Counted from the first letter of the stretch, positions 1-27,552 are shown. The stretch: DNA of 37,485 nt from an uncultured Candidatus Saccharibacteria bacterium (GCA_964596505.1 CAZQUF010000001.1:1-37485), one strand, 5' to 3'. Numbers and translations: made by a program. The notes: generated by a model not told the origin, from the letters alone.

Positions 1-1
1 T

Positions 2-64
2 CAGAGTATAACGATTTCGGCCGAGGAGAAAGCGGCGCTTGAGAAGTTGCTTAAGCGATTATAA
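2..64 (+). CDS. 3' end of an ORF running off the left edge (partial, unknown product)
   Basis: In-frame codons end at TAA 62-64 (tail ...ISAEEKAALEKLLKRL*). The start is off-window and no family is recognisable. Confidence 0.3.
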   Translation, partial: QSITISAEEKAALEKLLKRL

Positions 65-136
65 GGCCATGAATCGGCATACTTCCTCGTGTCAAATCGC
101 CTTGGATTTTACTCTAAAGGAAGCCATAATAAAGCT

Positions 137-1735
137 ATGAAGAACGCCCAAAAGACATCCCTCAAATACTTCCTCTACGCCCGCAAATCGACCGAATCAG
201 AAGATCGACAGGTTGCTTCGATTGACTCTCAGATTGATGAGATGAAGAAGATTGCCTTGCGACAGGGCATACAGATTATAGAGATACTCTCTGAATCAGG
301 GTCGGCAAAGACCCTCGGCCGAATAGTTTTCAACAAAATGCTCGATCGCATCATCAAGGGTGAGGCGAATGGTTTATTGTGTTGGAAGCTCGATCGTCTC
401 GCTCGTAACTTTGACGATGGTGGCAAAATCATAGGCTTGCTTCAACGTGGTGTCATTCAGGAGATCCGCACGTATGAGAAGACTTATTTGCCGAGCGACA
501 ACGTGTTGATGATTGCTCTTGAGCTCGGCATGGCTAATCAGTACTCGCGCGACCTTTCTGTGAACGTATCGCGTGGCCTGAAAGCCAAAGCTCAAATGGG
601 CTGGTATCCCGTTCAGCCTCCTATCGGCTATCTCAATAGCAAAACAAAAGGTAAGGGTTGTAATGATATTTTTAAGGATACGGAGCGATTCGATTTGGTC
701 CGAAAGATTATGGACTTGATGCTGACGGGTACTAAGCCGCCAAGCAAGATATTGCGGATTGCCACCGATGAATGGGGTCTACGGACCCGCAGGGGCGCTG
801 GTATTTCTCGAAGTGGCATCTATCATCTTTTAACGAATCCCTTTTACTACGGCATGTTCGAGTTCCCGAAGAAAAGCGGCAACTGGTATCAGGGCTTGCA
901 TGAGCCGATGATTACCATCGAGGAATACGACAAGATACAGATTCTCCTCGGCCGAAAGGGTAGCCCGCGCCCCAAAGCGAACATATTCGATTTTACGGGC
1001 ATGATGAGGTGCGGGGAGTGTGGTTGCATGATTACGGCTGAAGCAAAGGTTAAAAGGCAACTGAACGGCAACGTGCATCACTATGTCTACTATCACTGCA
1101 CAAAGCGAAAGAATCCAAATTGTGCTCAAGGGTCCATCGAGACGACGGTCCTTAAAAAGCAGATCGTTCAGGCAATAGAATCCGTTAACATTCCGCCTGA
1201 GTTCCACTCCTATGCTATGAAGTGGTTCAGAAAGAGGAATGAGGAGGATACGACCGTCAATACGACCATTCTAACCTCACAGCAGAAGGCTTATAACGTC
1301 TGCGTTAAGAAAATCGCTGGCCTCATTGATATGCGAGCAGGCGGAGAAATCAGTGAACAGGAGTTTGGCGAGAAGAAGACGCTCCTTTTGAAGGATAAGA
1401 GCCGTCTCGAAGAACTACTTGCCGATTCGGGCGATCGAGTGAGCAAGCAGGTTCAGAATGCCGACGACCTGTTTACCTTTGCCCGCGATGCGGTGACTAA
1501 GTTCAATAAGGGCCCAATCGACACCCGAAAACGGATACTCTCTACGCTCGGTTCGAACCTCGTCCTAAAAGACAGAATACTGCGTATTGATTGGGAAAAA
1601 TCGCTATTACCGACAGAAAAGCTGGCTCATGAGGTACGGAAACTTCATGAAGGGTTAGAACCTCCGAAAACCTTGATGGCACAAGGAGATTTCGACCGAA
1701 TGTACTCCGAGAGTCCTATCGTGTCCGCCCTGTAG
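137..1735 (+). CDS. Large serine recombinase (resolvase/invertase-type catalytic domain plus recombinase and zinc-ribbon domains)
   Basis: The ORF is open from GTG 89. ATG 137 follows AAGGAAG and gives MKNAQKTSLKYFLYARKSTESEDRQ, the Y-x-R-x-S-T catalytic-serine motif. A Cys-rich zinc-ribbon-like stretch (RCGECGC...HCTKRKNPNC) and a long helical tail fit large serine recombinases. The region is visibly more AT-rich than the core genes. Confidence 0.85.
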   Translation: MKNAQKTSLKYFLYARKSTESEDRQVASIDSQIDEMKKIALRQGIQIIEILSESGSAKTLGRIVFNKMLDRIIKGEANGLLCWKLDRLARNFDDGGKIIGLLQRGVIQEIRTYEKTYLPSDNVLMIALELGMANQYSRDLSVNVSRGLKAKAQMGWYPVQPPIGYLNSKTKGKGCNDIFKDTERFDLVRKIMDLMLTGTKPPSKILRIATDEWGLRTRRGAGISRSGIYHLLTNPFYYGMFEFPKKSGNWYQGLHEPMITIEEYDKIQILLGRKGSPRPKANIFDFTGMMRCGECGCMITAEAKVKRQLNGNVHHYVYYHCTKRKNPNCAQGSIETTVLKKQIVQAIESVNIPPEFHSYAMKWFRKRNEEDTTVNTTILTSQQKAYNVCVKKIAGLIDMRAGGEISEQEFGEKKTLLLKDKSRLEELLADSGDRVSKQVQNADDLFTFARDAVTKFNKGPIDTRKRILSTLGSNLVLKDRILRIDWEKSLLPTEKLAHEVRKLHEGLEPPKTLMAQGDFDRMYSESPIVSAL

Positions 1736-1796
1736 GGATCGAACCTACGACCTTATCCTTAAGAGGGATCTGCTCTACCAACTGAGCTAAGGGCGG
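1724..1796 (-). tRNA. tRNA-Lys (anticodon CTT)
   Basis: Manual cloverleaf, 73 nt: acceptor CCGCCCT/AGGGCGG, D-arm GCTC-AGTTGGTA-GAGC, anticodon loop CTCTTAA, T-arm GTAGG-TTCGATC-CCTAC, discriminator A. No encoded CCA (trailer CAC). Confidence 0.85.
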
Positions 1797-1862
1797 ATAT
1801 ACCGACTATTCCGACGTGTGGAAAATCTACCAGAAAAAGCCGTGATTGGCAATTCTAGCGTG

Positions 1863-1947
1863 TGCCTGGGGTGGGACTCGAACCCACAATGACCTTGCGG
1901 TAGGGAAATTTTAAGTCTCCTGTGGCTACCAATTACACCACCCAGGC
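1863..1947 (-). tRNA. tRNA-Leu (anticodon TAA), type II with long variable arm
   Basis: Manual fold, 85 nt: acceptor GCCTGGG/CCCAGGC, anticodon stem GGAGA/TTTCC with loop CTTAAAA, 16-nt variable arm, T-arm GTGGG-TTCGAGT-CCCAC. Trailer CAC, no CCA. Confidence 0.85.
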
Positions 1948-1953
1948 AGGGTG

Positions 1954-2027
1954 AGGCCTAGACCGGATTCGAACCGGTGCATAACGGTTTTGCAGACCGT
2001 CGCGTTGACCATCTTCGCCACTAGGCC
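1954..2027 (-). tRNA. tRNA-Cys (anticodon GCA)
   Basis: Manual fold, 74 nt: acceptor GGCCTAG/CTAGGCC, anticodon arm ACGGT-CTGCAAA-ACCGT, T-arm ACCGG-TTCGAAT-CCGGT, discriminator U73 and A13/A22 mismatch as expected for tRNA-Cys. Trailer CAC. Confidence 0.85.
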
Positions 2028-2698
2028 TTCATTTCAAAATGCTCAGTGAATATAGCATATTTTCTTTCGAGGTACTCGTTTTTCGGCGCTTTGTCGTACA
2101 TGAGCTTAAAGAGGCATTCGCTACCGAATGTCGAGTACCGGAGCTGATATGCTGTCCAACTCCTGATGACGTTTGCGGGTTTTACGCCCGTTTCTTCAGA
2201 TATTCTCTCGGAAAGCACTTTTAGAAATATTCCGCTGCCCGATGTGAATATGACATTGAGCTTTTTCGGGCGAATCTTCCCTGACTTTCTTACTATCTTT
2301 TCAAGGTGCACGCAACCGTCTCCGTCGAAGTATCCGCGGATGAAATGTCTGAGCACTCTTCGGGGAACAGAAGGGAACGTGATCGTGAGAGATTTATTTT
2401 GATAGAGACCTTTTCTTTCCAAGGATTTATAAAGTTTGGCATTGCCGATGCGGAGCCTGTAGACCAGTTTGCCGTTCTTGTGCGGCGATTCTCTTTGTAT
2501 AATAGTGTGCCCTGATCCAAGCCATAATTTGAACTTTGAGATCGTCTCGCGATCAGTGCTGGTCACTCCGACATATCGTCCACGCATTTTTGGCGTATAG
2601 ATTAGGTCGCCATCGGCATACAGATAGCCCAAAAGATATGCCATCCTCGGGCTCCATCGGTCGAAGAATTTTTCGTTCACTGCATAGCGTATTCCCAT
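2021..2698 (-). CDS. Free-standing double-motif LAGLIDADG homing endonuclease
   Basis: The 225-aa ORF carries two LAGLIDADG-type motifs, LLGYLYADGD (N-terminal half) and IRGYFDGDGC (second half). It is AT-rich relative to its neighbours. The stop codon (2021-2023) lies inside the 5' acceptor strand of tRNA-Cys. Confidence 0.85.
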   Translation of the reverse strand: MGIRYAVNEKFFDRWSPRMAYLLGYLYADGDLIYTPKMRGRYVGVTSTDRETISKFKLWLGSGHTIIQRESPHKNGKLVYRLRIGNAKLYKSLERKGLYQNKSLTITFPSVPRRVLRHFIRGYFDGDGCVHLEKIVRKSGKIRPKKLNVIFTSGSGIFLKVLSERISEETGVKPANVIRSWTAYQLRYSTFGSECLFKLMYDKAPKNEYLERKYAIFTEHFEMKA

Positions 2699-2704
2699 CT
2701 ATAA

Positions 2705-2732
2705 AGTATGGGACAAATCGCGTAGACTTCAA
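2705..2732 (-). promoter_or_regulatory. Putative promoter of the LAGLIDADG gene (-35 TTGAAG, 16-nt spacer, -10 CATACT, 6 nt to ATG)
   Basis: Hexamers read on the minus strand. The -10 ends 6 nt before ATG 2698 and no Shine-Dalgarno is present. Confidence 0.35.
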
Positions 2733-2751
2733 TATTTACAAAATCACCTGA

Positions 2752-3081
2752 TTATTTCGCCAAGCTCTCATCTATCCTCTGCCTCGCTTTCTCGCCCTTA
2801 TCCACGGCGAAGTCGAAGAACGGCAATCGCATGAGCCGGGCGTTGTATTTGACGTAGGCGCGGAATTCGGAGAGGTTGCGCTGGAGGAAATCGAGGGCGG
2901 CCGGCTCCTTGCTCTCGGGCATGACGGTGAAGAAGACGGTCGCCTTGTTAGACTTCTCGGCGCAGGCGACGCGCGTCACCGTGATCATGGAGACGCGGTT
3001 GGAATTGAGGGAGACGAACTCGGCGGCGAGGTGCTTGAGGAGCTCCTCGAGGCGTTCGTTTTTAAGCGTTGATGTGGACAT
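2752..3081 (-). CDS. rbfA: Ribosome-binding factor A
   Basis: The 109-aa ORF has RbfA-like sequence (...ITVTRV...ATVFFTV...FLQRN...FRAYV...RLPFFDF..D) and lies immediately downstream of infB, which is conserved synteny. Confidence 0.8.
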   Translation of the reverse strand: MSTSTLKNERLEELLKHLAAEFVSLNSNRVSMITVTRVACAEKSNKATVFFTVMPESKEPAALDFLQRNLSEFRAYVKYNARLMRLPFFDFAVDKGEKARQRIDESLAK

Positions 3082-16519: not shown

Positions 16520-16614
16520 TGCGGGCGATGAGGGAATCGAACCCCCGACAAGGCGTTTGGAGTGCCTCGTTATGCCACTTAACTAATCGCCCGTATTTCG
16601 AATCGCCTTGATTT
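16520..16614. repeat. Direct repeat copy A (95 bp, identical to 17699-17793): whole tRNA-Trp plus 22 bp of its 5' flank
   Basis: Base-by-base comparison shows perfect identity at offset 1179. Imperfect similarity continues for about 40 more bp (to about 16650 / 17828), covering TATAAA and TTCCAA promoter-like hexamers. Confidence 0.9.
16522..16592 (-). tRNA. tRNA-Trp (anticodon CCA), copy 1
   Basis: Manual fold, 71 nt: acceptor GGGCGAT/ATCGCCC, D-arm GTTA-AGTGGCA-TAAC, anticodon loop CTCCAAA, T-arm GGGGG-TTCGATT-CCCTC, discriminator G. Trailer CAC. Confidence 0.85.
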
Positions 16615-16698: not shown

Positions 16699-17589
16699 TT
16701 AGCGCCAGTTATCGACGTTGACCTTGCCGATACTCGTTGCCCGCATGAATGGCGTATTGACGACGCGGTGGACGTCGATGCCTCCCACGCCTGAGGCGCG
16801 GAGCTCGGCATTCTGGGCTACCCCGTTGAAGGCGATACCGCCGACGCTCGTGGCACTGGCGGTGATCTTCGAGACGTCGCCATCGTCGATGCGGACCTTG
16901 CCGACGCCGTTCGTAGTCACGGTGAGTAGGCCATCGACCTTTTTGACATAGATGCTGCCGACGCTCTCGGCGGTGAGGCTTGCGTCGCGGACTTTGCCGA
17001 TGGTGACGTCGTTCACGCCTGAGGAGGCGACGGTCACTTGTCCCTCGGTATCGCCGATCGAGACGTCCCCGTTCACGTCGGTCACGGTCACGGGCGTTCT
17101 GCGGGGAACGATGACGATGATCTTCGCGGCGGCTTTTTTGCCGATGGAGATCCTGCCGATCGAGATGCCGACCTTGAGGATGGATAGCGCGAATCCGGAC
17201 GGCCGACTCTTCGGGCTGATGAGGACCACCTTGTCGTCGCTTTCGATGCTGAGGTTCTCAACGGCCTTCGGATCGCCTTCGACGGCGACCGTGAATCGGG
17301 GACCGACGGCTACTTCGACTTCGGCGTCGACGCCGGCGATTTTCAGTTCGCTGGCATCGAAGACGCGCGGTTCGAATTTCTGGACCGGGGTCGTTTTCGA
17401 TTCCAGCGCGCCCTTTGCCGTGAGCTTGATGGTCTTGCCGCTCATCGAGACGTCTCCTGTGCAGGTGATTTGACCGGTCGATATGTCGCAGACGCTCCCG
17501 TCGGAGAAGGTGACGCGCGAGTTTTGGATGCCCGTTATCGTCATGCCGGTGAACTCGATTGTCTTGCCGTTCAGGGTCAGTGTTTGCAT
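16699..17589 (-). CDS. Beta-helix repeat protein resembling DUF2807/DUF4097 (putative adhesin-head GIN-type repeats)
   Basis: The 296-aa ORF has a strong SD (AAGGAG, 6 nt, ATG). It contains repeated x-V-x-G-D/G-V-x-I/V units (VNGDVSIGDTEGQVTVASSGVNDVTIG, SVGSIYVKKVDGLLTVTTNGVGKVRID, SVGGIAFNG...ASGVGGIDV). No signal peptide is evident. Confidence 0.6.
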   Translation of the reverse strand: MQTLTLNGKTIEFTGMTITGIQNSRVTFSDGSVCDISTGQITCTGDVSMSGKTIKLTAKGALESKTTPVQKFEPRVFDASELKIAGVDAEVEVAVGPRFTVAVEGDPKAVENLSIESDDKVVLISPKSRPSGFALSILKVGISIGRISIGKKAAAKIIVIVPRRTPVTVTDVNGDVSIGDTEGQVTVASSGVNDVTIGKVRDASLTAESVGSIYVKKVDGLLTVTTNGVGKVRIDDGDVSKITASATSVGGIAFNGVAQNAELRASGVGGIDVHRVVNTPFMRATSIGKVNVDNWR

Positions 17590-17698: not shown

Positions 17699-17793
17699 TG
17701 CGGGCGATGAGGGAATCGAACCCCCGACAAGGCGTTTGGAGTGCCTCGTTATGCCACTTAACTAATCGCCCGTATTTCGAATCGCCTTGATTT
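17699..17793. repeat. Direct repeat copy B (95 bp, identical to 16520-16614)
   Basis: See copy A. Confidence 0.9.
17701..17771 (-). tRNA. tRNA-Trp (anticodon CCA), copy 2 (identical to copy 1)
   Basis: The 71-nt sequence is the same as 16522-16592. The trailer is CAG, and no terminator lies between it and the downstream beta-helix gene. Confidence 0.85.
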
Positions 17794-18363: not shown

Positions 18364-18474
18364 ATTTTCCTCTGATGCGAAACATATCACAAGCGTCCGT
18401 GTGCCGCAATATGATTCAGATTAAGATCTAGTCCCGATATTTTTAATCTCTTGTCGCGGGTATATACTACCCGC

Positions 18475-19620
18475 ATGGAACCCCTCGCCAACAAAATCCG
18501 CCCAAAAACCCTGAAAGAATTCGTGGGCCAGGAGCATCTGGTCGGCCCGCACGGGCCTTTGCGCATGGCGATTCGGGACAAGCATCTCTTTTCCTTCATC
18601 CTCTGGGGTCCGCCGGGCGTGGGCAAGACGACCTTGGCTCGGATATACGCCAACGCCCTCGATGCCAAGCTCTACGAGCTCTCCGCGGTTTCGGCGGGGA
18701 AGGACGACATCAAGAGGATCATCGACGAGCCGACGCTCCTCGATCCCCGGCCGAAGCTCCTCTTCCTCGACGAGATCCATCGCTTTAATAAGGCTCAGCA
18801 GGACTTTCTCCTGCCCTTGGTCGAGACGGGGAGGCTGACCCTCATCGGCGCGACGACCGAGAATCCGAGTTTCGAGGTCATATCGGCATTGCTCTCGCGT
18901 TGCCGCGTCTTCGTCTTGGAGAGTCTTTCGGAGAAAGACATCCAGAAGATCATCGTCCGGACCAAAATAAAAGTGCCCAAGGACGCCATTGAGTGGCTCG
19001 TGACCCTGGCCAACGGCGACGCGCGCATCGTCCTCTCGGCTCTCGAGAATACCAAGCAGATCTACGGCTCCATCACTCGCGAGAATCTCAAGAATGCCTT
19101 CGAGCACGCGTTCATCCGCTTCGACAAGAAAGGCGAGGAGCACTACGACACCATATCGGCTTTCATAAAAAGCATGCGCTCGGGCGACGCCGATGCGGCC
19201 ATCTATTACCTCGCCCGCATGATCGCCGGCGGGGAAGACCCGAAGTTCATCGCCCGGCGCATGGTCGTCTTCGCTTCCGAGGATATCGGCCTCGCCCAGC
19301 CGACGGCCCTCGTCGTAGCTAACGCGGTCTTTCAGGCGGTGGACACCATCGGCCTGCCCGAAGCTCAGGAGAATCTGGCGCACGGCGTGGCGTATCTCGC
19401 CCTGGCCGCTAAGGATCGCTCGGCATACGACGCATATATGGAAGCTCTGTCCGACGTCAAAGCTACCGGCAATCTGCCGATACCGCTCCGTATCCGGAAC
19501 GCCCCGACCAAGCTCATGAAGAATCTCGGCTACGGCAAAGGCTATGACAAATACGACAAAGAGAGCTATCTGCCGGATACATTGAAAGGGAAGAAGTATT
19601 TGAGGCGGCCGAAAAAGTGA
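18475..19620 (+). CDS. rarA: Replication-associated recombination protein A (AAA+ ATPase RarA/MgsA)
   Basis: MEPLANKIRPKTLKEFVGQEHL, Walker A GPPGVGKTTLA, LFLDEIHRFNKAQQD, GATTENPSFEV and the C-terminal MgsA domain (HYD.ISAFIKS.RGSD.DAA.YYLARM) are all present. Confidence 0.9.
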   Translation: MEPLANKIRPKTLKEFVGQEHLVGPHGPLRMAIRDKHLFSFILWGPPGVGKTTLARIYANALDAKLYELSAVSAGKDDIKRIIDEPTLLDPRPKLLFLDEIHRFNKAQQDFLLPLVETGRLTLIGATTENPSFEVISALLSRCRVFVLESLSEKDIQKIIVRTKIKVPKDAIEWLVTLANGDARIVLSALENTKQIYGSITRENLKNAFEHAFIRFDKKGEEHYDTISAFIKSMRSGDADAAIYYLARMIAGGEDPKFIARRMVVFASEDIGLAQPTALVVANAVFQAVDTIGLPEAQENLAHGVAYLALAAKDRSAYDAYMEALSDVKATGNLPIPLRIRNAPTKLMKNLGYGKGYDKYDKESYLPDTLKGKKYLRRPKK

Positions 19621-19646: not shown

Positions 19647-19678
19647 GAGAGAGCCGCTTCATACGAAGCGGCTCTCTC
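19647..19678 (+). terminator. Strong hairpin after rarA (14-bp perfect stem, ATAC loop)
   Basis: GAGAGAGCCGCTTC-ATAC-GAAGCGGCTCTCTC. The U-tract is weak (TGCTT), so it may be a stabiliser or a terminator. Confidence 0.55.
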
Positions 19679-19682
19679 TGCT

Positions 19683-19707
19683 TGGAGACGACGGGAATCG
19701 GACCCGC
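19683..19707 (-). other. tRNA 3'-end-like fragment (T-arm plus acceptor 3' strand), possible att-site remnant
   Basis: The minus strand reads GCGGG-TCCGATT-CCCGT-CGTCTCC-A. This is a T-stem/loop one substitution from the GGTTCGATTCC consensus, plus 7 nt and a discriminator. No matching 5' acceptor strand (GGAGACG) occurs within 100 nt, so it is not a complete tRNA. Confidence 0.35.
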
Positions 19708-19764
19708 CTCTGCTTGTCAACAGAACGAGCGGATCCTCGCAAGAGCTGTGCTATCATAATCCCC

Positions 19765-20937
19765 ATGAAAGTGCACAAGATCTACATCGGCGGCTGGTTC
19801 CAGCGCACGACGCTCCATCTCACGGAGATGTGGGATTTCATGAAGAGCGGCACGTCGAGGCTCGATCTGCCGACCGACAAGCTCGCAGAGATGCTCGCAG
19901 GCCTTTCTATCGCGAGCGTGACGCGCGAGAGCGGCCCTCTCGAGTATCTCTGCGTCACGACGAGCGTCGGCATCGAGTATCGGATATACGAAGACGGTCT
20001 TATCATCCTCGAAAAAGCCTTCAGCTCTCTCTCGGCAGATTTCGCCGCCATCAAGGAATATTATGACGAAAAGCTCTCCAAGAGCCTGTCTTTCATCTTT
20101 AGCAAAGGCGCTCCCGTGCCGAAAGAGCTCGCCAATATCAAGACTATCCTTCCATACATCGTCACCGTGAGCGGCGCCAAGGAAGGGGAGATCTCCGCCA
20201 TGTTCAAGGACGCATCCGAAGAGATGTACTCTGTCCTCAAGACCAAGACTGTCGGCGTCTATCGGAGCTCGGGACTCATCGTCATCGACGACCTCATGGA
20301 CGAGGCTCTCGCTCGAGATGTCATCGAATCTCAGATATTCTTCCGCGAGTTCAAGACGCAGCTCCACCGGTATCTCGCTATCCATCGAACTCTTTGGGAG
20401 AAGATTCGCGAGATCAAAGAGCGGGGACAGATAAAGGGCACCGATATCGACGGCCTGCGCAACCAGCTTTCGATATATCAAAAGACCGTGAATCTTATTG
20501 GGGCGAGGATCGACCAGATGCCCGCATACGTCGAAACCCGCCGAAAGATGACCCATACCGACAAGCTCGATCCGAGCCTCGAGCCGCTCTTTCAATTCAA
20601 GTTCGAGACTCTCCTCGACACGCACGAGTACATAAAACACCTCTGGAGCATGACCGAGAACTATCTCGGGTCGGCTATCGAGCTTTTCAACGAGCTCCAG
20701 GCCAAGAGCACCAAGAACACCATCTCCTCTCTCCAACTCGTCACCACCATCGGCGTCGTGGCCGGCATCCTCGGCTATCTCGCCAAGGATACGCTGCCTC
20801 AATTCACCTGGATCGGAGCGCTCTACTTCGTCTTGCTCATGGCTATGACCTGGATCGTCAATAGCGCCATATCGAAGTTCTACAAGAACAAGAGGTACAA
20901 GATAAAGGCGGAGGAGATCGAGAAGGATATCAAATAG
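19765..20937 (+). CDS. CorA-like two-TM membrane protein with non-canonical GYL in place of GMN (family assignment tentative)
   Basis: ATG 19765 follows an extended -10 (TGcTATCAT). A cytosolic domain of about 330 aa with long helices is followed by TM1 (LQLVTTIGVVAGILGYL), a short loop (AKDTLPQF), TM2 (WIGALYFVLLMAMTWIVNSAI) and a basic tail (KFYKNKRYK). This is the CorA/ZntB topology. Confidence 0.6.
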   Translation: MKVHKIYIGGWFQRTTLHLTEMWDFMKSGTSRLDLPTDKLAEMLAGLSIASVTRESGPLEYLCVTTSVGIEYRIYEDGLIILEKAFSSLSADFAAIKEYYDEKLSKSLSFIFSKGAPVPKELANIKTILPYIVTVSGAKEGEISAMFKDASEEMYSVLKTKTVGVYRSSGLIVIDDLMDEALARDVIESQIFFREFKTQLHRYLAIHRTLWEKIREIKERGQIKGTDIDGLRNQLSIYQKTVNLIGARIDQMPAYVETRRKMTHTDKLDPSLEPLFQFKFETLLDTHEYIKHLWSMTENYLGSAIELFNELQAKSTKNTISSLQLVTTIGVVAGILGYLAKDTLPQFTWIGALYFVLLMAMTWIVNSAISKFYKNKRYKIKAEEIEKDIK

Positions 20938-20971
20938 GTCGGGATTTCGCCCGCCCGAGTGCCCATATGGC

Positions 20972-20999
20972 TTGAAAGGGCATATACTATATGCATAAT
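20972..20999 (+). promoter_or_regulatory. Promoter of the giant ORF (-35 TTGAAA, 16 nt, -10 CATAAT, 10 nt to ATG 21010)
   Basis: Hexamers read directly in the 72-nt gap after the CorA-like gene. Confidence 0.5.
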
Positions 21000-21009
21000 T
21001 ATAGCGCGT

Positions 21010-23865
21010 ATGCCTGAATCGCTTTTACCTCAGGAGTCACAAGAATCGGCGCCGAATATCGAGGGCGAAGAGCCCACTGCCGAAGGGCTTTTTCTGTCGC
21101 GATTCGATCGTATAGACATTACTGACCCGCTCCTCGAAGAGATTCGGGTCGAAGGGGGGAAGGTTCAAACGCTCGTAGCGGAACTGAAGAGCGCCGTCGA
21201 GAGCATTCTCGATGCTGGGAGAGAGGATACTGTGGGCGAGCTCGTCGCGACCGAGATAGAGAAAGGCCCCGAATACGTGCGCGGCAGGCTCAGCGAGCTT
21301 GATGTGCGCACGAATGATCTCGCAGAGAGACTCAAGAAGCTCAAAAGCGATGTGCGGGCGAAGACAGAGATATTCTCATGGACTCAAAACAAAACTACAG
21401 ACCTCGCAAGCCTCCGCGAAGGTTTAAGGTTCGCAGTCCCGCTGATTCAGTCAACCGTCGCCGCCTCGACAGAGTTCCGCAGTGTATGCAATGCTCGCGA
21501 CGATCTCTACGATGCGTATGCGTTGGCAAGGATACAGCACTACGGCGGGACTTCGATAGATGACTCGTACGGCCTCTATGAGCAAAAGTCGACCGAGCGC
21601 AGGAGGCTCAGCGGCCCGCTCGGTATCAAACGCCTGTTCTATCGGAAGGAACTTACTCAGCTCGATGAAGAGATGGCTGAGCTCTCAGGGTTTATGTCTG
21701 GTCGGAGAAAGTCTTCATCGAACTTTAGCTACTTTGATCGCGAGGATGCCAAGAATGCATTCGTAGATTACGCGCAATCTATCGAACACAAGGTGCAAAA
21801 GAAGATAACGGAATGCGTCGAGGCGAACGCCAAAGAGAGATTGCGTTCTGAGAAAGCGACTATCCTCGACGCGGCAGAAGTCGACGCTCTCGATAATGTT
21901 CTCCTCGAGAAGTTCGCCGTCCCTGAGCTCAAAGGATGCAGCGAAGAAGTCATTGAAGATACAGTAGGTTTGCTGAAGCGAAGCTTCGAGATAAAACTAG
22001 ATGCGGAGCACACTGGCTCGGGACCGTATAGCCGGCTCGATAGCGAGATAGCGAATCTGCAAGGGCAGAGCTACAGGATAGCTCGAGAGTTTAGGGGTTC
22101 CGGTCAGAGGTTCCAAAAAGTCGCCGCTTTCGTCGATACCGGCCATCTGAGGCTAAAATCGGGAGAAGAGATACAGAGAATCGGTCTTGCCGCAGAGGCG
22201 TCCTTTGCAGATATCTTCAAAATGTTAGGCAAGGTCGGCGCGGGCCTGTCTGGGTACTCTCGACCTCGGCTCTTCGGAGGCGATTTCGATACCCTTCGGT
22301 TCAAGGCGATCGCCGCGTGTCCGGAGACCAAGGCCAGATTTGGCGAAAAGATCGAATCTGCAAGGCGGACGCTGGAAGCAGGCTTGGAGCGCTCCTTGAC
22401 GAGTTCGGCCAAGAACCATGAAGAAGGCGTGCTTTTGGCTTCGAAGCTCATGGATATCGGAGGGCCCGAAAGCGTCGCGGTCATGCTTGTCAACGCTTTC
22501 CGGGAGCCCGGATATTCTGGCGAGCGTCTGCTGCTCCAGCCCGATAAACCAGAAAGCGGGCCGCTCGTAGCCTATCTCTCTCGACTTACCGATAAGGATC
22601 TGGAAGTTTTGAAGGGGCAATCGATTCCCGGTCTTATAGAATGTATTTCTCTTATCCGCTCTCATCCTGCCGATTTCGTGCACCCCCGCCCTGGGTCGGT
22701 ATACGCCGAAGTGCAGGCGGAGCTCGCAAAAGTCGTGGGGCATTTCTTTGAAACGAGGGGTAAGGAGCTCTTCGAATTCCTTGTCGATTCGGCTGATAAC
22801 GTAGATTCCGACCTTGGAGGATCGTACGCAAAGATAGATGATGTCCTCAGAAAGTCCGACAATCTGAGCTTTTTCTCCGATGTTATTACCACTTTCAGGC
22901 GTCGATTCGTGTTGTTTAATGACGTAAAGTCTCTCAAGCTCCTTTCAGAGATCCCTGATTGTCTTGATAACATAGATGAGTTCCCGCAAAGGCTTCGCGG
23001 CGGCATACAGAAACAGCTTGCCTCGGAGATGTACGAGTCATATCGTTCGTACGAATCGCGTCGCTACGGCTTGGCCATATTGCAGAAGGGCCCTGCAGAG
23101 GAAGACGGCGCTGGATCCCGAGACGCATCGCACGCTCAGGTCCAGGCTATGTTCAAGAAGATATCCGAAAACACCATTCTGAGCCCCGACGTGATTTCCA
23201 AATTTAACGGACTGAGGCTAAAGGCCGCGCTCGGCGAACCGATGCAGGTAGATCGCGACCGATTAGCCGAGCTTTTCAATGATCCTCACATCGATACAGT
23301 CAAAACCGATGTTAGGTCATTTATATTCGACCTTGTGTCTTCAGGCAAGGTCGAATTGACAGCCGCGCAAGCAGCCGCATCTGTCGATCGATTGATCGAG
23401 GAGGCGCACTCCTCTCTGCTCCTCTACGACACCAAAAAGAGCAGAGATTTTGCCCGGACTCTCTCGGAGAAGAGTCTCATCTCCGAGTCTCAGTATAGGA
23501 CTTTCCAAAAAGCGATAGACACTGCCGATTCCGGATATGTACAGGCTTTGGGAACCCACAAAGGAGATCTAGAGATAACGGGCGCGAATTGGGTCGAGAA
23601 CCTCTCGTGGTATATACGGATTAACGCCGGTTTTGCTGCCAATGGCGCAGGCTCGAATGTCCTGAGACGTACGTTCTCTAACGATCATCCTGCGAACAGG
23701 GATGCCTGTCTCCGCGGACTTTACGGCTCATGGCGGGCGCTCTTGGAATCAGGACGATTGGATATGGACGGCAGCACTATTTCCCGTGTCGTGCGTATGA
23801 ATAGGGGGGGCGGGTGGTCTCAAATATGTCGAACGGCTTGCGCAGATGATGTCGTCTGTCGATAA
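21010..23865 (+). CDS. Large hypothetical protein, part 1 (951 aa from ATG 21010), predominantly helical with no recognisable motif
   Basis: The ORF has diverse composition, whereas the antisense ORFs are Gly/Asp/Arg/Leu-rich shadows. There is no Walker A, HExxH, signal peptide or TM helix. The last 17 codons after the G7 tract (WSQICRTACADDVVCR) look non-native. Confidence 0.65.
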   Translation: MPESLLPQESQESAPNIEGEEPTAEGLFLSRFDRIDITDPLLEEIRVEGGKVQTLVAELKSAVESILDAGREDTVGELVATEIEKGPEYVRGRLSELDVRTNDLAERLKKLKSDVRAKTEIFSWTQNKTTDLASLREGLRFAVPLIQSTVAASTEFRSVCNARDDLYDAYALARIQHYGGTSIDDSYGLYEQKSTERRRLSGPLGIKRLFYRKELTQLDEEMAELSGFMSGRRKSSSNFSYFDREDAKNAFVDYAQSIEHKVQKKITECVEANAKERLRSEKATILDAAEVDALDNVLLEKFAVPELKGCSEEVIEDTVGLLKRSFEIKLDAEHTGSGPYSRLDSEIANLQGQSYRIAREFRGSGQRFQKVAAFVDTGHLRLKSGEEIQRIGLAAEASFADIFKMLGKVGAGLSGYSRPRLFGGDFDTLRFKAIAACPETKARFGEKIESARRTLEAGLERSLTSSAKNHEEGVLLASKLMDIGGPESVAVMLVNAFREPGYSGERLLLQPDKPESGPLVAYLSRLTDKDLEVLKGQSIPGLIECISLIRSHPADFVHPRPGSVYAEVQAELAKVVGHFFETRGKELFEFLVDSADNVDSDLGGSYAKIDDVLRKSDNLSFFSDVITTFRRRFVLFNDVKSLKLLSEIPDCLDNIDEFPQRLRGGIQKQLASEMYESYRSYESRRYGLAILQKGPAEEDGAGSRDASHAQVQAMFKKISENTILSPDVISKFNGLRLKAALGEPMQVDRDRLAELFNDPHIDTVKTDVRSFIFDLVSSGKVELTAAQAAASVDRLIEEAHSSLLLYDTKKSRDFARTLSEKSLISESQYRTFQKAIDTADSGYVQALGTHKGDLEITGANWVENLSWYIRINAGFAANGAGSNVLRRTFSNDHPANRDACLRGLYGSWRALLESGRLDMDGSTISRVVRMNRGGGWSQICRTACADDVVCR
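23804..23810 (+). repeat. G7 homopolymer at the junction of the two large ORFs
   Basis: The sequence is aat-a-GGGGGGG-c-ggg. The downstream ORF's frame is open from 23801, immediately 5' of the tract. Confidence 0.95.
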
Positions 23866-25906
23866 TGTGCTTAATGGAGGGCATAAAGTAGCCGAGAAGA
23901 CCAAAGAAAGCATCCAGAGCGGACTGCTCGCGTGCGAGAAGAGGTTCGATAAGGAACGCAGGTCCGATGAAGACCGCTCGGTCTACTATCTCATATCGAA
24001 AGATATCCTCGCCGCCTCTCCGAGCCTGTACGGCGACTTTCTTGGATTGCTTGAGGGACTCGAGCAGAAAGACCTCGAGACCTTCAATGAAGGATGCTTT
24101 CCTCTCTACCAGGCGCTGCTCACGGTCTATCAGAAAGGCAGGCGCGATCTCGGTGAGCCTATCTATAGCGGCAGGGATCTCTTGAAGATCAGAAAGAATA
24201 TAGAGGGCCTCAAAGCAAGAATTGCGGAAGGCGTGCCGCCTAAAGATATTTTTGAGGCTGGGCGTCAGGACCTCATCGAGCGCATTAAACAAGGTTTTGC
24301 AAAGCGTTTCGGTATAAAGAAGGTTCCTGAGCATTTCGACAAAGAGAGGATCAGGACGGTTCAGGACTTCATCCGCTATATCTCGAATCTTGCGCATAAG
24401 GACGACACAAAAGAGGCCTTGCTGGCTTTCTACTTCTCGCTTTGCCTGAACGACGAGTGGCACGCCTTTAGAGCCGGAAAGGCGGTAAACGTCGGCGATT
24501 ATCTCGAGGACGACAAGAAAGAGATCGTCGAAGCCGTCCTTAAGCAGTATTCCCCAGACAAGATCATTATGCCGTCCCTGCTCGGCATAGAGGAGAACCA
24601 GATAGGCGCATTCAGAGAGGCGCTTGAGACCGAAACGGTGGCAACCACTCTCGGGAGCATACAGACCATAGACATGAAGCTTGGGAACGCGAAGCGGGGC
24701 ATAGAGACGCTCGGGGATCTCGACGCCTATCCTGAAGAAAAGGATAAGGCCACCCTCGCCTTGTGCCTCAAGCATCACAAAGCGGTAGGCCAAGCGCTCG
24801 CCGAGCTCTTCGGCTCTCTAAAGAGTAAGAAGCCGATCTCGGAGTCGTCTAGACTCATAGCGGCAAGGCTTGCCGATATATACGGCGTAGATTCATGGAC
24901 GGCGGGCGAGATCAAGAGGGTCCAAGACGATGTGAAGGTCGTAAGCCTCATCGTCGATATGCTCAAGAAAGTCGAAGACGAGGACATCGATCGAAAGATA
25001 GAAGAGTTGCACGCGGCGCTCGAGCCCTCTGAGAGCGTCATTCGCATCTTCCAAAAGATCGGCGAAGAGTTCGAAAGGAGCTCTGGCGCTCTCGCTCTCT
25101 CTCACGACCTTGCGTATCTCGAGAATATATTCGTCAAGAACGACGACAAGCTCGATGACATCGAGAAGAAAGCGGCGAAGGATTATATCGATGGTATACG
25201 GAACCTCATGACGGGCCTCGAAGGCATATCTATGCGAGTTAAGGAATACTTCGAAAAGGTCGCGAAAAGCATCCATGGCGCCAAGAAAGAGATCCTTGAG
25301 AGTCGCATGGAAGAAATACGAAAAGTCCTTCATGCGACGGGCGAAGCCATGAATATCACGAGCACGATGACGTCGAACATGAACCTCCTTATCGAACATA
25401 TGAGGCAGTGTCTCGGCTGTCGTACTACAGAGATCAATAACGATACCAACCTGACGTTCGGCGAACCTTACAAGTTCTATCTTCTGAGCCAGACGGATGA
25501 CTTCAGCGATAGCATCGCTGACGAGATCGTCTCTTTGCTGCCCGTAACGTTCGAAGACGGAAAGAAGGGTATGGCCTTCGTGCTCGATCAATTGTATGGT
25601 ACGAAGTCGTCCGATGTGCTTGCGAGCCATATAAAGACGATAGAGAAGAAGCGCGAGGGGCTCAAGGCGCGATTCCCTGACGCGCATATCCCGATCGTCG
25701 TCTCTCAGGCCGCGCTCAGGAGCGTTGGTCTTGATGGCTCCTTGCTTATGGATCGTCTCAATGCGACCGGGAAAAAAGATATATTCCTCGCTTCGGACTT
25801 GAGTATTACGATACCCGTCTCTGCGTTGGGCGAGCACTATACCGAATTTGGCGGTGGGGCGCGTAGCGCTGGCCCGCGAAGCGTCGCGGCTCTCGTTATC
25901 GCCTAG
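23846..25906 (+). CDS. Large hypothetical protein, part 2 (686 aa), probably continuous with 21010..23865
   Basis: ATG 23846 overlaps the upstream stop by 20 nt with no SD. Its frame is already open from 23801 (IGGAGGLKYVERLAQMM...). It is helical and charged, with no recognisable motif. It ends convergently, overlapping miaA by 11 nt. Confidence 0.65.
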   Translation: MMSSVDNVLNGGHKVAEKTKESIQSGLLACEKRFDKERRSDEDRSVYYLISKDILAASPSLYGDFLGLLEGLEQKDLETFNEGCFPLYQALLTVYQKGRRDLGEPIYSGRDLLKIRKNIEGLKARIAEGVPPKDIFEAGRQDLIERIKQGFAKRFGIKKVPEHFDKERIRTVQDFIRYISNLAHKDDTKEALLAFYFSLCLNDEWHAFRAGKAVNVGDYLEDDKKEIVEAVLKQYSPDKIIMPSLLGIEENQIGAFREALETETVATTLGSIQTIDMKLGNAKRGIETLGDLDAYPEEKDKATLALCLKHHKAVGQALAELFGSLKSKKPISESSRLIAARLADIYGVDSWTAGEIKRVQDDVKVVSLIVDMLKKVEDEDIDRKIEELHAALEPSESVIRIFQKIGEEFERSSGALALSHDLAYLENIFVKNDDKLDDIEKKAAKDYIDGIRNLMTGLEGISMRVKEYFEKVAKSIHGAKKEILESRMEEIRKVLHATGEAMNITSTMTSNMNLLIEHMRQCLGCRTTEINNDTNLTFGEPYKFYLLSQTDDFSDSIADEIVSLLPVTFEDGKKGMAFVLDQLYGTKSSDVLASHIKTIEKKREGLKARFPDAHIPIVVSQAALRSVGLDGSLLMDRLNATGKKDIFLASDLSITIPVSALGEHYTEFGGGARSAGPRSVAALVIA

Positions 25907-26828
25907 CTTTGTTGAGGAATTTCCGAACTGCGCCCTCGACTTTTCGATTCGAAGTTGGCCCGAACCATTCGATCGATTTGTTTGCCCCGAACCACCTCAT
26001 TTGCCTCTTCGAGAAATCGACGATCCTGTTCTCGAGCTCGACGAGCATCTCGGTCTTCGAGAGCTTCTTTTGGAGATAGAGTGCGGCGTATCTATACTCG
26101 AGGCCGAATTCATGGAGGCGTTTCCATGAGACGCCTTTTTTGTGGAGTCGCGCGGTCTCGCGGATAATCGTATCACCCCGCATGCGCTTCATCAGGCGGG
26201 CATGGATGCGTTCCCGGAGCGTTTCGCGATCGGTCGTAAGGCCGATGAAGAGAGTTTCATAGAGCTTCTTCCGTTTCGCGCCGGGAGAGGGGTCTATTTT
26301 TGGTACGAAGCCAAGGGTGCGCGCTATCTCGATCGCCCGGATAATGCGTACTTTGTTACGGGGATCGATGTCGCGAGCGCGACGAGGGTCGAGTCGGCGA
26401 AGCTCCCTCATGAGGCTTTCGACCGGCTTTTTTGCGAGCCGCGCACGGAGCTTTTTGTCAGGCGGCACGGCAGGGAACGTCTCGTCATAGACGAGAGCGT
26501 CGATGTAGAAGCCTGTGCCGCCGCATATGATGGGGAGTTTACCTCGACGGATGATATCGGCGATCGCTTTCGTTCCGTCTCGCTTGAAATCTTCGACGGT
26601 ATAGCGCGGGCTCTTTCGGTTGCGCGGGTCTACGACGTCGAGGAGGTGGTGGGGGATACTTTTCATCTCGCGCTTCGTGATCTTGCCTGCGCCAACGTCG
26701 AGGCCGCGATAGACCTGGCGCGAATCGGCGGATACGACCTCGCCGCCGAACGCGCGAGCGAGCTCGACTGCGAGGCCGCTCTTGCCTGTGGCGGTTGGGC
26801 CGAGGATGACGATGATTTTCTTTTTCAT
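25896..26828 (-). CDS. miaA: tRNA dimethylallyltransferase
   Basis: IIVILGPTATGKSGLAVELA (P-loop), VSADSRQVYRGLDVGAGK and IICGGTGFY are canonical MiaA blocks. Confidence 0.9.
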   Translation of the reverse strand: MKKKIIVILGPTATGKSGLAVELARAFGGEVVSADSRQVYRGLDVGAGKITKREMKSIPHHLLDVVDPRNRKSPRYTVEDFKRDGTKAIADIIRRGKLPIICGGTGFYIDALVYDETFPAVPPDKKLRARLAKKPVESLMRELRRLDPRRARDIDPRNKVRIIRAIEIARTLGFVPKIDPSPGAKRKKLYETLFIGLTTDRETLRERIHARLMKRMRGDTIIRETARLHKKGVSWKRLHEFGLEYRYAALYLQKKLSKTEMLVELENRIVDFSKRQMRWFGANKSIEWFGPTSNRKVEGAVRKFLNKARR

Positions 26829-26833
26829 TTTTG

Positions 26834-26904
26834 TCGGGGCACCGAGAATCGAACTCGGACCTCACGTACCCGAAACGTGTATACTGCCACTATACTATGC
26901 CCCG
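26834..26904 (-). tRNA. tRNA-Pro (anticodon CGG)
   Basis: Manual fold, 71 nt: C1:G72 acceptor CGGGGCA/TGCCCCG (typical bacterial tRNA-Pro), anticodon arm CACGT-TTCGGGT-ACGTG, T-arm CCGAG-TTCGATT-CTCGG, discriminator A. Its 3' end lies 5 nt from the miaA ATG. Confidence 0.85.
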
Positions 26905-26951: not shown

Positions 26952-27455
26952 TTAGGGTAAATGAGCGATCCATTTCTCGAGAGTATCCTCAGGTCTAAAT
27001 ATAAAAGCTTTTTCGTTTTCTCTCGGGATTTCTAATTCTCTGTTTCCCCAGTCAATGAGGTGTTGAGGGACATCGTGGCGCTCCTTCGTTTTCAGGTTTT
27101 TCACTCTCCTCTCTTCTCTGATATCATTCGGGGTGTCAAAATAGATAAGGACCGGTCGCGCACCGGATTCGTCTGCCAGTTTCCGTAGATTTTCTCTTCC
27201 GTGGTATTTCAAACTAATATCGTCGAAAATCACGTCTTTTCCTTCAGTCAAAAGCGTTCGCACTCTATCTTTAGACATCTCTAATATCCTATCCCAATCC
27301 TCGTCGCTGTTTTCATCGAGATTCCATTCCTTTTTCTTCTCAAACCATAGCTCGTCTTGGCTGACTCGGATGGCGTCTTTAAGTCGAGCGATTTCTTTCG
27401 ATACCGTAGATTTGCCTGAATAGGCAGGTCCACAGGTTATGTAGAGCTTATTCAT
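26952..27455 (-). CDS. P-loop kinase-like ATP-binding protein (AAA_33 / polynucleotide-kinase / zeta-toxin-like fold)
   Basis: The 167-aa ORF has Walker A GPAYSGKST at residues 9-17 and a Walker-B-like VIFDD. It is clearly AT-richer than the flanking DNA. Confidence 0.75.
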   Translation of the reverse strand: MNKLYITCGPAYSGKSTVSKEIARLKDAIRVSQDELWFEKKKEWNLDENSDEDWDRILEMSKDRVRTLLTEGKDVIFDDISLKYHGRENLRKLADESGARPVLIYFDTPNDIREERRVKNLKTKERHDVPQHLIDWGNRELEIPRENEKAFIFRPEDTLEKWIAHLP

Positions 27456-27468
27456 AAATTCATTCTTT

Positions 27469-27552
27469 TGGTGCCGGAGGAGGGACTCGAACCCTCACAC
27501 CTTGCGATACACGATTTTGAGTCGTGCGCGTCTGCCATTCCGCCACTCCGGC
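27469..27552 (-). tRNA. tRNA-Leu (anticodon CAA), type II, the only tRNA here with encoded CCA
   Basis: Manual fold, 84 nt including CCA: acceptor GCCGGAG/CTCCGGC, anticodon arm CACGA-CTCAAAA-TCGTG, long variable arm, T-arm GAGGG-TTCGAGT-CCCTC, then A-CCA. Confidence 0.85.

Follow-up and report, generated by a model that had tools for sequence, protein, structure and literature searches.

The DNA considered here is a 37,485-nt stretch from an uncultured Candidatus Saccharibacteria bacterium (GCA_964596505.1 CAZQUF010000001.1:1-37485), referred to below as the window, whose coordinates are used throughout. Our subject was the region at 19765-25906, which lies between rarA and miaA and carries three open reading frames (ORFs) on the plus strand. 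A first-pass annotation had described this region as an orphan module, in which a CorA-like membrane protein was paired with a domain-less helical protein of roughly 1,630 aa, and all three ORFs were indeed found where it had placed them. We consider it likely that the region instead holds two independent, uncharacterised genes of the Patescibacteria (candidate phyla radiation, CPR) that are adjacent only on this contig and do not form a two-component system: ORF1, which encodes a CorA-like protein, and a giant gene that is split into ORF2 and ORF3. The features of the region and its boundaries are as follows, TM1 and TM2 being the predicted transmembrane (TM) helices of ORF1.

18451-19620, plus strand: rarA/mgsA, encoding an AAA+ ATPase (Pfam MgsA_C at 1.2e-50, AAA_assoc_2, AAA); the left boundary gene, outside the feature.
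19647-19678, either strand (a palindrome, listed for the minus strand): terminator-like 14-bp G+C-rich hairpin 3′ of rarA, from a hairpin scan.
19683-19708, minus strand: tRNA-like 3′ fragment of 26 nt, GGCGGGTCCGATTCCCGTCGTCTCCA, with the T-arm and the acceptor 3′ strand (best local score 13, against tRNA-Trp).
19749-19757, plus strand: extended −10-like element TGcTATCAT, 8 nt 5′ of the ORF1 ATG; a putative promoter read in the sequence.
19765-20937, plus strand: ORF1, 390 aa, predicted membrane protein with a CorA fold; its Patescibacteria family is strongly conserved (homologues, AlphaFold2, Foldseek).
20716-20886, plus strand: TM1, the short loop G-Y-L-A-K-D-T-L-P and TM2 (ORF1 residues 318-374), placed from the model helices; the TM1 region is 94% conserved.
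20972-20999, plus strand: sigma-70-like TTGAAA-16-CATAAT, 11 nt 5′ of the ORF2 ATG, with 10 of 12 consensus matches.
21010-23865, plus strand: ORF2, 951 aa, the N-terminal ~935 aa of the giant (its fast-evolving helical part); the last 18 codons, past the G run, are out of frame.
23804-23810, plus strand: homopolymer of seven Gs (G7) with a +1 reading-frame shift; removal of one G joins ORF2 to ORF3.
23846-25906, plus strand: ORF3, 686 aa, the conserved C-terminal module of the giant; its frame is open from 23801.
25328-25903, plus strand: C-terminal alpha/beta domain (ORF3 residues 495-686) with a GNAT-like order of elements, from DSSP, weak structural matches and the alignment.
25403-25477, plus strand: motif R520-x-C522-L-x-C525 ... 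N531-N532-D-T534-x-L-x-F-G ... K-F544, in which R520, C522, L523, N531, N532 and T534 are 100% conserved in 151 sequences.
25896-26828, minus strand: miaA, encoding a tRNA isopentenyltransferase (Pfam IPPT at 1.5e-58); the right boundary gene, convergent with ORF3 and overlapping it by 11 nt.

The claim of a functional module was examined through gene neighbourhoods, adjacency being tested within ~7–10 kb of giant loci (up to 10 kb on each side), with a few loci common to both sets. Searches with ORF1 using tblastn found no relative in 80 giant loci from species-representative genomes, nor in 80 giant loci from JGI metagenomes, and the closest intact relatives of the giant (L094 and L095, with ORFs of 1,606 and 1,611 aa) were likewise without an ORF1 relative nearby. 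Seven distinct neighbourhoods of ORF1 relatives contained no giant gene and no adjoining gene encoding more than ~700 aa; these contexts were divIC-lepA-murJ, PIN-bipA, rplJ/mraZ-rsmH-ftsI (dcw), smpB/infC-rpmI-rplT, an ECF sigma factor, infB-rbfA/patatin, and genes without Pfam matches. When ORFs flanking the giants were clustered, the top neighbour cluster, present in 11 of 80 loci, was a generic ABC ATPase, and in a Pfam census of 145 flanking ORFs no family occurred in more than 4. The co-occurrence of the CorA-like and giant genes that a sensor/effector pairing had led one to expect was thus not found, in 0 of 160 giant loci and 0 of 7 ORF1 contexts.

Frame analysis and intact homologues showed that ORF2 and ORF3 are one gene of ~1,631 aa that a single surplus G in the G7 breaks in two. 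A TGA stop at 23798-23800 precedes the opening of the ORF3 frame at 23801, the G7 follows, and deletion of one G from it yields a fused protein of 1,631 aa. ORF2 is collinear with the N-terminal half of the intact homologue P0162 (1,647 aa; residues 91-930 against 84-951, E 1e-43) and with that of P0186 (1,611 aa), while ORF3 is 33% identical to the C-terminal half of P0122 (E 9e-98); overall, the giant is ~32% identical to its best relatives. The fused protein aligns without a gap across the junction with six intact homologues (for example ...GAGGLKYVERLAQ... against ...GAGDLKYVEGLAE...), so the fused model proposed in the first-pass annotation held. We also found a contig from a second assembly in ENA (ERZ27245399 among the source samples) with 99.95% identity to 20900-24960, with 2 mismatches in 4,061 bases and the same G7. 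Because this assembly carries the same G7 while differing at two nucleotides, the frameshift is probably real in the DNA and not a random assembly error.

A conserved programmed frameshift is unsupported, since homologues show no frameshift at this site: their ORFs run uninterrupted for 1,340–2,900 aa, six of them aligning straight through the junction. In this organism, the giant gene may have been inactivated recently, may be expressed as two polypeptides, or may be rescued by slippage at the G run. That ORF2 and ORF3 are a dead pseudogene, or an assembly artefact without biological meaning, seems to us somewhat unlikely, yet it is the strongest of the alternatives that we weighed. The split falls exactly at a homopolymer, the close homologues are all intact single ORFs, and other members from metagenome-assembled genomes are also split, at different positions (L048, L054 and L046); on the other side, 951 and 686 codons have both stayed open with no second lesion, and the shared G7 in the ENA assembly counters random assembly error, if not a recent real mutation.

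We found that the giant belongs to a rare family whose members are seen poorly by fast searches. A word-indexed search found almost nothing, even with a 55-sequence profile, and it was an exhaustive HMMER scan with the ORF3 module that exposed the family: 269 representative proteins, 217 of them at E ≤ 1e-30. Most of the 150 best listed giants are 1,300–2,800 aa long, with the module at the extreme C-terminus in almost all. Scans with near-invariant motifs gave 89 relatives among the 185,579 species genomes and 109 among 241 million metagenome records, and no relative was found in 2.9 million viral contigs. The titles of the records carrying the gene name Saccharibacteria/Nanosyncoccus, Gracilibacteria, Peregrinibacteria/Peribacteria, Woesebacteria, Levybacteria, Daviesbacteria, Amesbacteria and Shapirobacteria, and further Nomurabacteria, Falkowbacteria, Magasanikbacteria, Kerfeldbacteria, Harrisonbacteria, Berkelbacteria and Dojkabacteria. 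Some Saccharibacteria genomes hold two paralogues (L061/L075, L066/L073, and two copies in L072). In distant giants, the N-terminal halves diverge past BLASTP detection, whereas the C-terminal modules remain 30–44% identical. The fused giant has neither a signal peptide nor a TM helix; across the family, signal peptides are absent and TM-like segments occur in only 4 of 150 members. A Pfam scan of seven other members found no informative domain within the family region. Taken together, these data show a rare, Patescibacteria-restricted family spread across many lineages, whose members are soluble, signal-less giants with a helical, fast-diverging N-terminal part and a conserved C-terminal module of ~690 aa.

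One relative is built on a larger scale still. At L071 206-22051 (CAYGFH010000002.1), a single ORF exceeding 7,281 aa runs without interruption to the end of the retrieved locus; it carries the giant-family module internally, at residues 3260-3949, and a canonical GNAT domain lies ~2,300 aa beyond the module (Pfam Acetyltransf_1, E 2.6e-7).

The first-pass annotation had called the giant domain-less, and while no curated domain matched it, that description was overstated, since the last ~690 aa make up a conserved module, whose alpha/beta end domain is predicted with confidence. The AlphaFold2 model of ORF3, built on a 55-sequence alignment, had a mean predicted local distance difference test (pLDDT) score of 86 and a predicted TM-score (pTM) of 0.72. 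Residues 1-495 were almost wholly helical, and within residues 502-685 DSSP assigned the order b1-a1-a2-b2-b3-b4-a3-b5-a4-b6-b7, which is that of GNAT enzymes. Searches of the ORF3 model against PDB and BFVD with Foldseek gave nothing significant. The best weak matches that recurred in the two structure libraries were GNAT acetyltransferases, a GNAT toxin, malonyl-CoA decarboxylase and viral N-myristoyltransferases; with the whole ORF3 model searched, these included 4evy (probability 0.66, TM-score 0.43–0.45), 7crm (E 0.14) and a viral N-myristoyltransferase (probability 0.84). The giant's last ~190 aa share with GNAT acyl-CoA N-acyltransferases the element order and the recurrent weak matches, and malonyl-CoA decarboxylase (PDB 4ksa) resembles the giant in placing a helical domain ahead of its alpha/beta domain; unlike GNAT enzymes, the giant gives no significant match, no GNAT Pfam hit, and lacks the Q/RxxGxG/A loop. 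Nothing known significantly resembles its C-terminal module.

Conservation within the module was concentrated in few residues. In 151 sequences (ORF3 numbering), Q360, R520, C522, L523, N531, N532, T534, D559 and D581 were invariant, and W205, D276, D291, D293, P394, E407, S413, G414, A417, Y447, D533, Y584 and Y665 were conserved in at least 98%, while C525 completed a CxxC in at least 90% of 64 sequences. The most conserved element, RxCLxC...NNDTxL, sits in the a1-a2 region, and we know of no GNAT counterpart to this segment. A Pol-beta nucleotidyltransferase was also considered for the G-S...D-x-D stretch (ORF3 270-293) and rejected, because the residues are spaced too widely and the model shows helix, not strand, at this point. 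On the strength of the model and the alignment, the terminal alpha/beta domain would have a GNAT-like fold, and the invariant Arg/Cys/Asn/Asp cluster may be a catalytic or ligand-binding site of the acyl-transfer type, carried on a large helical scaffold; the C-terminal module would then be an enzymatic or ligand-binding unit.

The neighbourhood of one relative bears on where such a protein might act. In P0122 (GCA_016648615.1, a 53-kb contig), the giant gene lies just 3′ of a type IV pilus cluster (pilB, pilT, pilC, pilins and a prepilin peptidase), together with a transposase and a tyrosine recombinase; in the Pfam census of flanking ORFs, the type IV pilus association did not recur in other giant loci. 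We weighed whether the giant could be a secreted or injected host-interaction factor of episymbiosis, whose N-terminal part adapts to hosts and whose C-terminal enzyme domain acts in or on the host cell, and regard this as improbable. It would fit the divergence of the N-terminal halves beside the retained C-terminal modules, the patchy and rare distribution, the paralogue pairs in Saccharibacteria, and the one relative beside pilus genes and an integrase, but 146 of 150 members are without a signal peptide or TM anchor, genes for pili or secretion systems do not recur among the 145 flanking ORFs, and in polymorphic effectors it is normally the N-terminal trafficking part that stays constant and the C-terminal toxin that varies, opposite to the pattern seen here.

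The family of ORF1 presented a very different picture. A word-indexed search found more than 2,482 homologues, and the best 120 of these were 388–411 aa long, covered the full length at 68–73% identity, and all began M-x-I-x-K-I-Y-I-G-G-W. Those with names belonged to Woesebacteria, Nealsonbacteria, Paceibacterota and other Patescibacteria, and all were annotated as hypothetical. In a 46-sequence sample the median pairwise identity was 76%; identity among members across classes was 68–85%, a Woesebacteria and a Nealsonbacteria member sharing 84%. By comparison, miaA, parB and three other window proteins were 32–41% identical to their counterparts in CPR loci, a comparison that is indicative only, as the genome pairs differed. 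Exact-sequence look-ups of ORF1 and of the protein P0124 matched no record. The G+C content at third codon positions (GC3) of ORF1 was 0.77 and its codon-usage distance 0.074, which is core-like (core genes mostly have a GC3 of 0.70–0.80). In 2.9 million viral contigs we found a single relative, 39% identical, at 8001-9179 of L093 (IMGVR_UViG_3300028454_000294, a contig classed as viral); phage-borne spread as the cause of ORF1 conservation was dropped in view of this sole, divergent relative. These results show that ORF1 belongs to a large family of 390-aa inner-membrane proteins that evolves very slowly and is confined to Patescibacteria. It is among the most conserved proteins in this analysis, the opposite of a mobile accessory gene.

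At the level of fold, the designation of ORF1 as CorA-like was borne out. The AlphaFold2 model (pLDDT 73) consists of an N-terminal alpha/beta domain, helices at 180-219, 225-262 and 273-338, a loop, and a helix at 349-374, and the top 50 Foldseek matches in PDB were all CorA or ZntB (best E 2.1e-5, probability 1.00, ~310 columns, 8–15% identity). As modelled, ORF1 therefore shows the CorA architecture: a cytoplasmic alpha/beta domain, long stalk helices, two C-terminal TM helices and a basic tail. It shares with CorA/ZntB/Mrs2 proteins (T. maritima CorA; PDB 2iub, 4i0u, 3jcf) this architecture, the length class, the short external loop and the basic C-terminal tail. When aligned with the T. 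maritima CorA sequence, which we checked against PDB, the 'AGILGYL' of ORF1 falls on 'AGIYGMN', so that G-Y-L stands at the place of G-M-N and the Gly of that position is retained; the family consensus is ...AGILGYLGKD.... The GMN motif defines the CorA family and coordinates hydrated Mg2+, and it was found nowhere in ORF1. ORF1 differs from CorA further in giving no PF01544 signal, in the 8–15% identity, in its restriction to Patescibacteria and in its far stronger within-family conservation.

The 39%-identical relative is informative as to which part of the protein is held constant. It keeps the cytoplasmic motifs GGWFQRTTL, EDGLI, GAPVPKELA, QIFxREFKxQLHRYLxIHR and ETLxDTxEYIKxLWxMT, and in place of G-Y-L it has ...AAILS-LFTE.... 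Because the cytoplasmic motifs are kept and G-Y-L is not, the cytoplasmic part seems to be the most constrained, and this conserved domain, rather than the pore loop, may be the main functional surface. We would expect ORF1 to oligomerise in CorA fashion into a membrane funnel and there to do housekeeping work, either as a channel or as a sensor coupled to the membrane, for a small solute or cation; from the model, ORF1 is predicted to be a housekeeping, CorA-fold oligomeric membrane protein, which could be either of these.

We also considered that ORF1 might be a divergent but genuine Mg2+/Co2+ CorA channel that replaces the canonical CorA depleted in CPR, and find this doubtful. The family-defining, Mg2+-coordinating GMN is absent, the Pfam CorA model matches 0 of 46 members even at an E of 10, the 39%-identical relative drops G-Y-L while retaining the cytoplasmic motifs, and the family's identity of ~76% across classes is far above that usual for CorA proteins. 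These points outweigh what speaks for a true CorA, namely the CorA/ZntB fold, the polar residues spaced along TM1, the acidic residue in the loop, the basic C-terminal tail, the alignment of 'AGILGYL' with 'AGIYGMN', and the report that the transporter families depleted in CPR include canonical CorA, which was found in 919 CPR genomes (Meheust et al., 2019; PMC6744442). The same authors described 106 CPR-enriched families, mostly poorly annotated, of which 76 contain one or more TM helices (Meheust et al., 2019; PMC6744442). ORF1 and the giant are likewise Patescibacteria-restricted and unannotated, and ORF1 is likewise a membrane protein; no specific family identifier was matched to either protein, however, and the giant family is rare, not widespread. 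A text search for homologues in the Tn-seq (transposon sequencing) tables of Southlakia epibionticum (PMC10633639) located only the two canonical CorA genes.

Several of our own observations count against the account of two independent Patescibacteria genes and the folds assigned to them. The adjacency test covers ~7–10 kb, so that independence applies at the level of the gene neighbourhood. About 17 records with the giant gene bear the title 'uncultured Gammaproteobacteria' (TPA_asm bins; e.g. L015, L018, L020-L022, L025, L041) and one the title 'Bacillota'; these are probably mislabelled bins, as their neighbours and contig sizes look Patescibacteria-like. For ORF1, TM-scores to CorA were low (0.2–0.35), which is expected because a straight-helix monomer model was compared with subunits of a pentamer, and the TM hairpin of the model has low confidence. 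A sequence-level link to CorA was not found either: PF01544 was unmatched by ORF1 (E ≤ 1) and by 46 homologues (E ≤ 10), no CorA chain appeared in a profile search of PDB sequences with the ORF1 family, and a Pfam census of weak matches gave neither a CorA nor a DUF155 signal. For the giant, the GNAT-like reading rests on element order and sub-threshold Foldseek matches (best E 0.04–0.14, PDB GNAT probability ≤0.66). The GNAT Pfam models (Acetyltransf_*) matched 0 of 64 domain sequences at E ≤ 10, in a search for which the canonical GNAT of the L071 ORF, detected at 2.6e-7, served as control. The Q/RxxGxG/A acetyl-CoA pyrophosphate-binding loop (b4-a3) is absent as well, the consensus there being FVMDxxYGxKxxDIL, with only D581, Y584 and G585 conserved. 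The biochemical functions put forward for both proteins are inferred ones.

As to orphan status, the first-pass annotation was right: Pfam, NCBIfam, PADLOC and PHROGs gave no significant match for any of the three ORFs, profile searches of PDB sequences with four alignments found nothing, and a motif scan found no Walker A, HExxH, GxSxG, PD-(D/E)xK or GMN pattern in the region's ORFs. The absence of a catalytic or binding motif in the region, and of a signal peptide in the giant, was likewise upheld, the motif and TM/signal scans both being empty. The higher use of A/T-ending codons that it had reported applied to the giant (GC3 of 0.59 for ORF2 and 0.66 for ORF3, moderately below the core genes) and not to the core-like ORF1; the lower GC3 is compatible with an accessory or weakly expressed gene. 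The horizontal origin proposed on this basis was not supported, given the codon usage of ORF1, the lack of an integrase near the region, whose flanks are rarA and miaA, and a tRNA-like fragment that repeats no tRNA in the window; for the same reasons, a genomic-island reading was rejected.

A horizontally acquired two-component system for defence, conflict or host interaction, with ORF1 as membrane sensor or channel and the giant as cytosolic effector, is very improbable. In its favour, the genes lie on the same strand 72 nt apart, the giant has a GC3 below that of core genes, a tRNA-like fragment lies to the left and tRNA-Pro beyond miaA to the right, relatives of the giant are few (89 in 185,579 species genomes), and ZorA2 weakly matches a helical stretch of ORF3. 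Against it, the pairing recurs in none of the 160 giant loci or seven ORF1 contexts, ORF1 combines core-like codon usage with extreme conservation, PADLOC gives no significant match, there is no integrase and no direct repeat of the tRNA fragment in the window, and viral contigs show no enrichment of either family (1 ORF1 relative and 0 giant relatives among 2.9 million). Both of the best PADLOC matches were weak (ZorA2 at E 2.7e-4 and 17.8 bits, CARF_TM at E 0.0076). The region is superficially like Zorya-type layouts (PADLOC-DB defence) in placing a membrane protein beside a large cytosolic one, and differs from known anti-phage systems in matching no model significantly, in its unconserved pairing and in having no NTPase, nuclease or protease motifs. 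The defence or module reading thus fails because the genes do not co-occur as neighbours and the codon usage of ORF1 is core-like, an outcome named beforehand as counting against it. Setting this pairing aside spares phage-challenge assays on a pair that does not exist.

With the region read as two independent genes, each gene is of moderate interest in its own right: ORF1 for its extreme conservation and lost CorA signature, the giant for a confidently modelled module without significant known similarity. Patescibacteria account for much of bacterial diversity, and about half of their genes are without assigned function. ORF1 is unusual in being confined to one lineage and yet changing more slowly than the housekeeping enzymes with which it was compared; it has a CorA fold minus its defining motif, and is a well-defined target for complementation, structural work and Tn-seq in Saccharibacteria that can be cultivated and in other CPR models. 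What the giant family provides is a compact 690-aa module, modelled with confidence, in which a small number of invariant residues can be mutated. A more speculative view, which we hold to be unlikely as a whole, is that both genes mark undescribed Patescibacteria-specific biology, the giant module being a new class of Cys-dependent transferase on a GNAT-like core (with the RxCLxC...NNDTxL site, a huge variable scaffold and a role in episymbiosis) and ORF1 a non-GMN branch of the CorA fold with a role other than Mg2+ transport. If true, an identity of ~76–85% between CPR classes would single ORF1 out as a membrane component that is essential and defines the lineage.

The boundaries described in the first-pass annotation were present on both sides, with rarA, the terminator-like hairpin and the tRNA-like fragment to the left and the convergent, overlapping miaA to the right. 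ARAGORN and Rfam reported no tRNA at 19683-19708, where the fragment is an incomplete tRNA, and a scan of the leaders with Rfam found neither a riboswitch nor a tRNA. As for the region having its own promoters, both elements are visible, but the number of promoter-like sites (3 observed against 4.3 ± 2.1 expected from shuffles) is not above chance. The −10-like hexamers TATCAT and CATAAT end 8 and 11 nt before the ATG codons of ORF1 and ORF2, with no Shine-Dalgarno sequence (19749-19767, 20994-21012). These positions, together with the absent Shine-Dalgarno sequence, suggest that the mRNAs of ORF1 and ORF2 may be leaderless or near-leaderless.

Elsewhere in the window, two 100% identical tRNA-Trp(CCA) genes on the minus strand (16521-16592 and 17700-17771) flank a single minus-strand gene at 16699-17589, whose product is a DUF2807/adhesin-head-like protein; this arrangement could reflect a duplication, or an insertion between tRNA copies. 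Positions 1-3000, which hold a tRNA-Lys/Leu/Cys cluster, are 48–49% G+C, while the remainder of the window is mostly 52–61%. The most deviant codon usage in the window belongs to a small AAA_33 kinase-like ORF on the minus strand at 26952-27455, between tRNA-Pro (26833-26904) and tRNA-Leu (27469-27552), with a GC3 of 0.47 and a codon-usage distance of 0.336, against 0.05–0.17 for the others. Judged by its composition, this ORF is a better candidate for horizontal transfer than the region of ORF1 and the giant.

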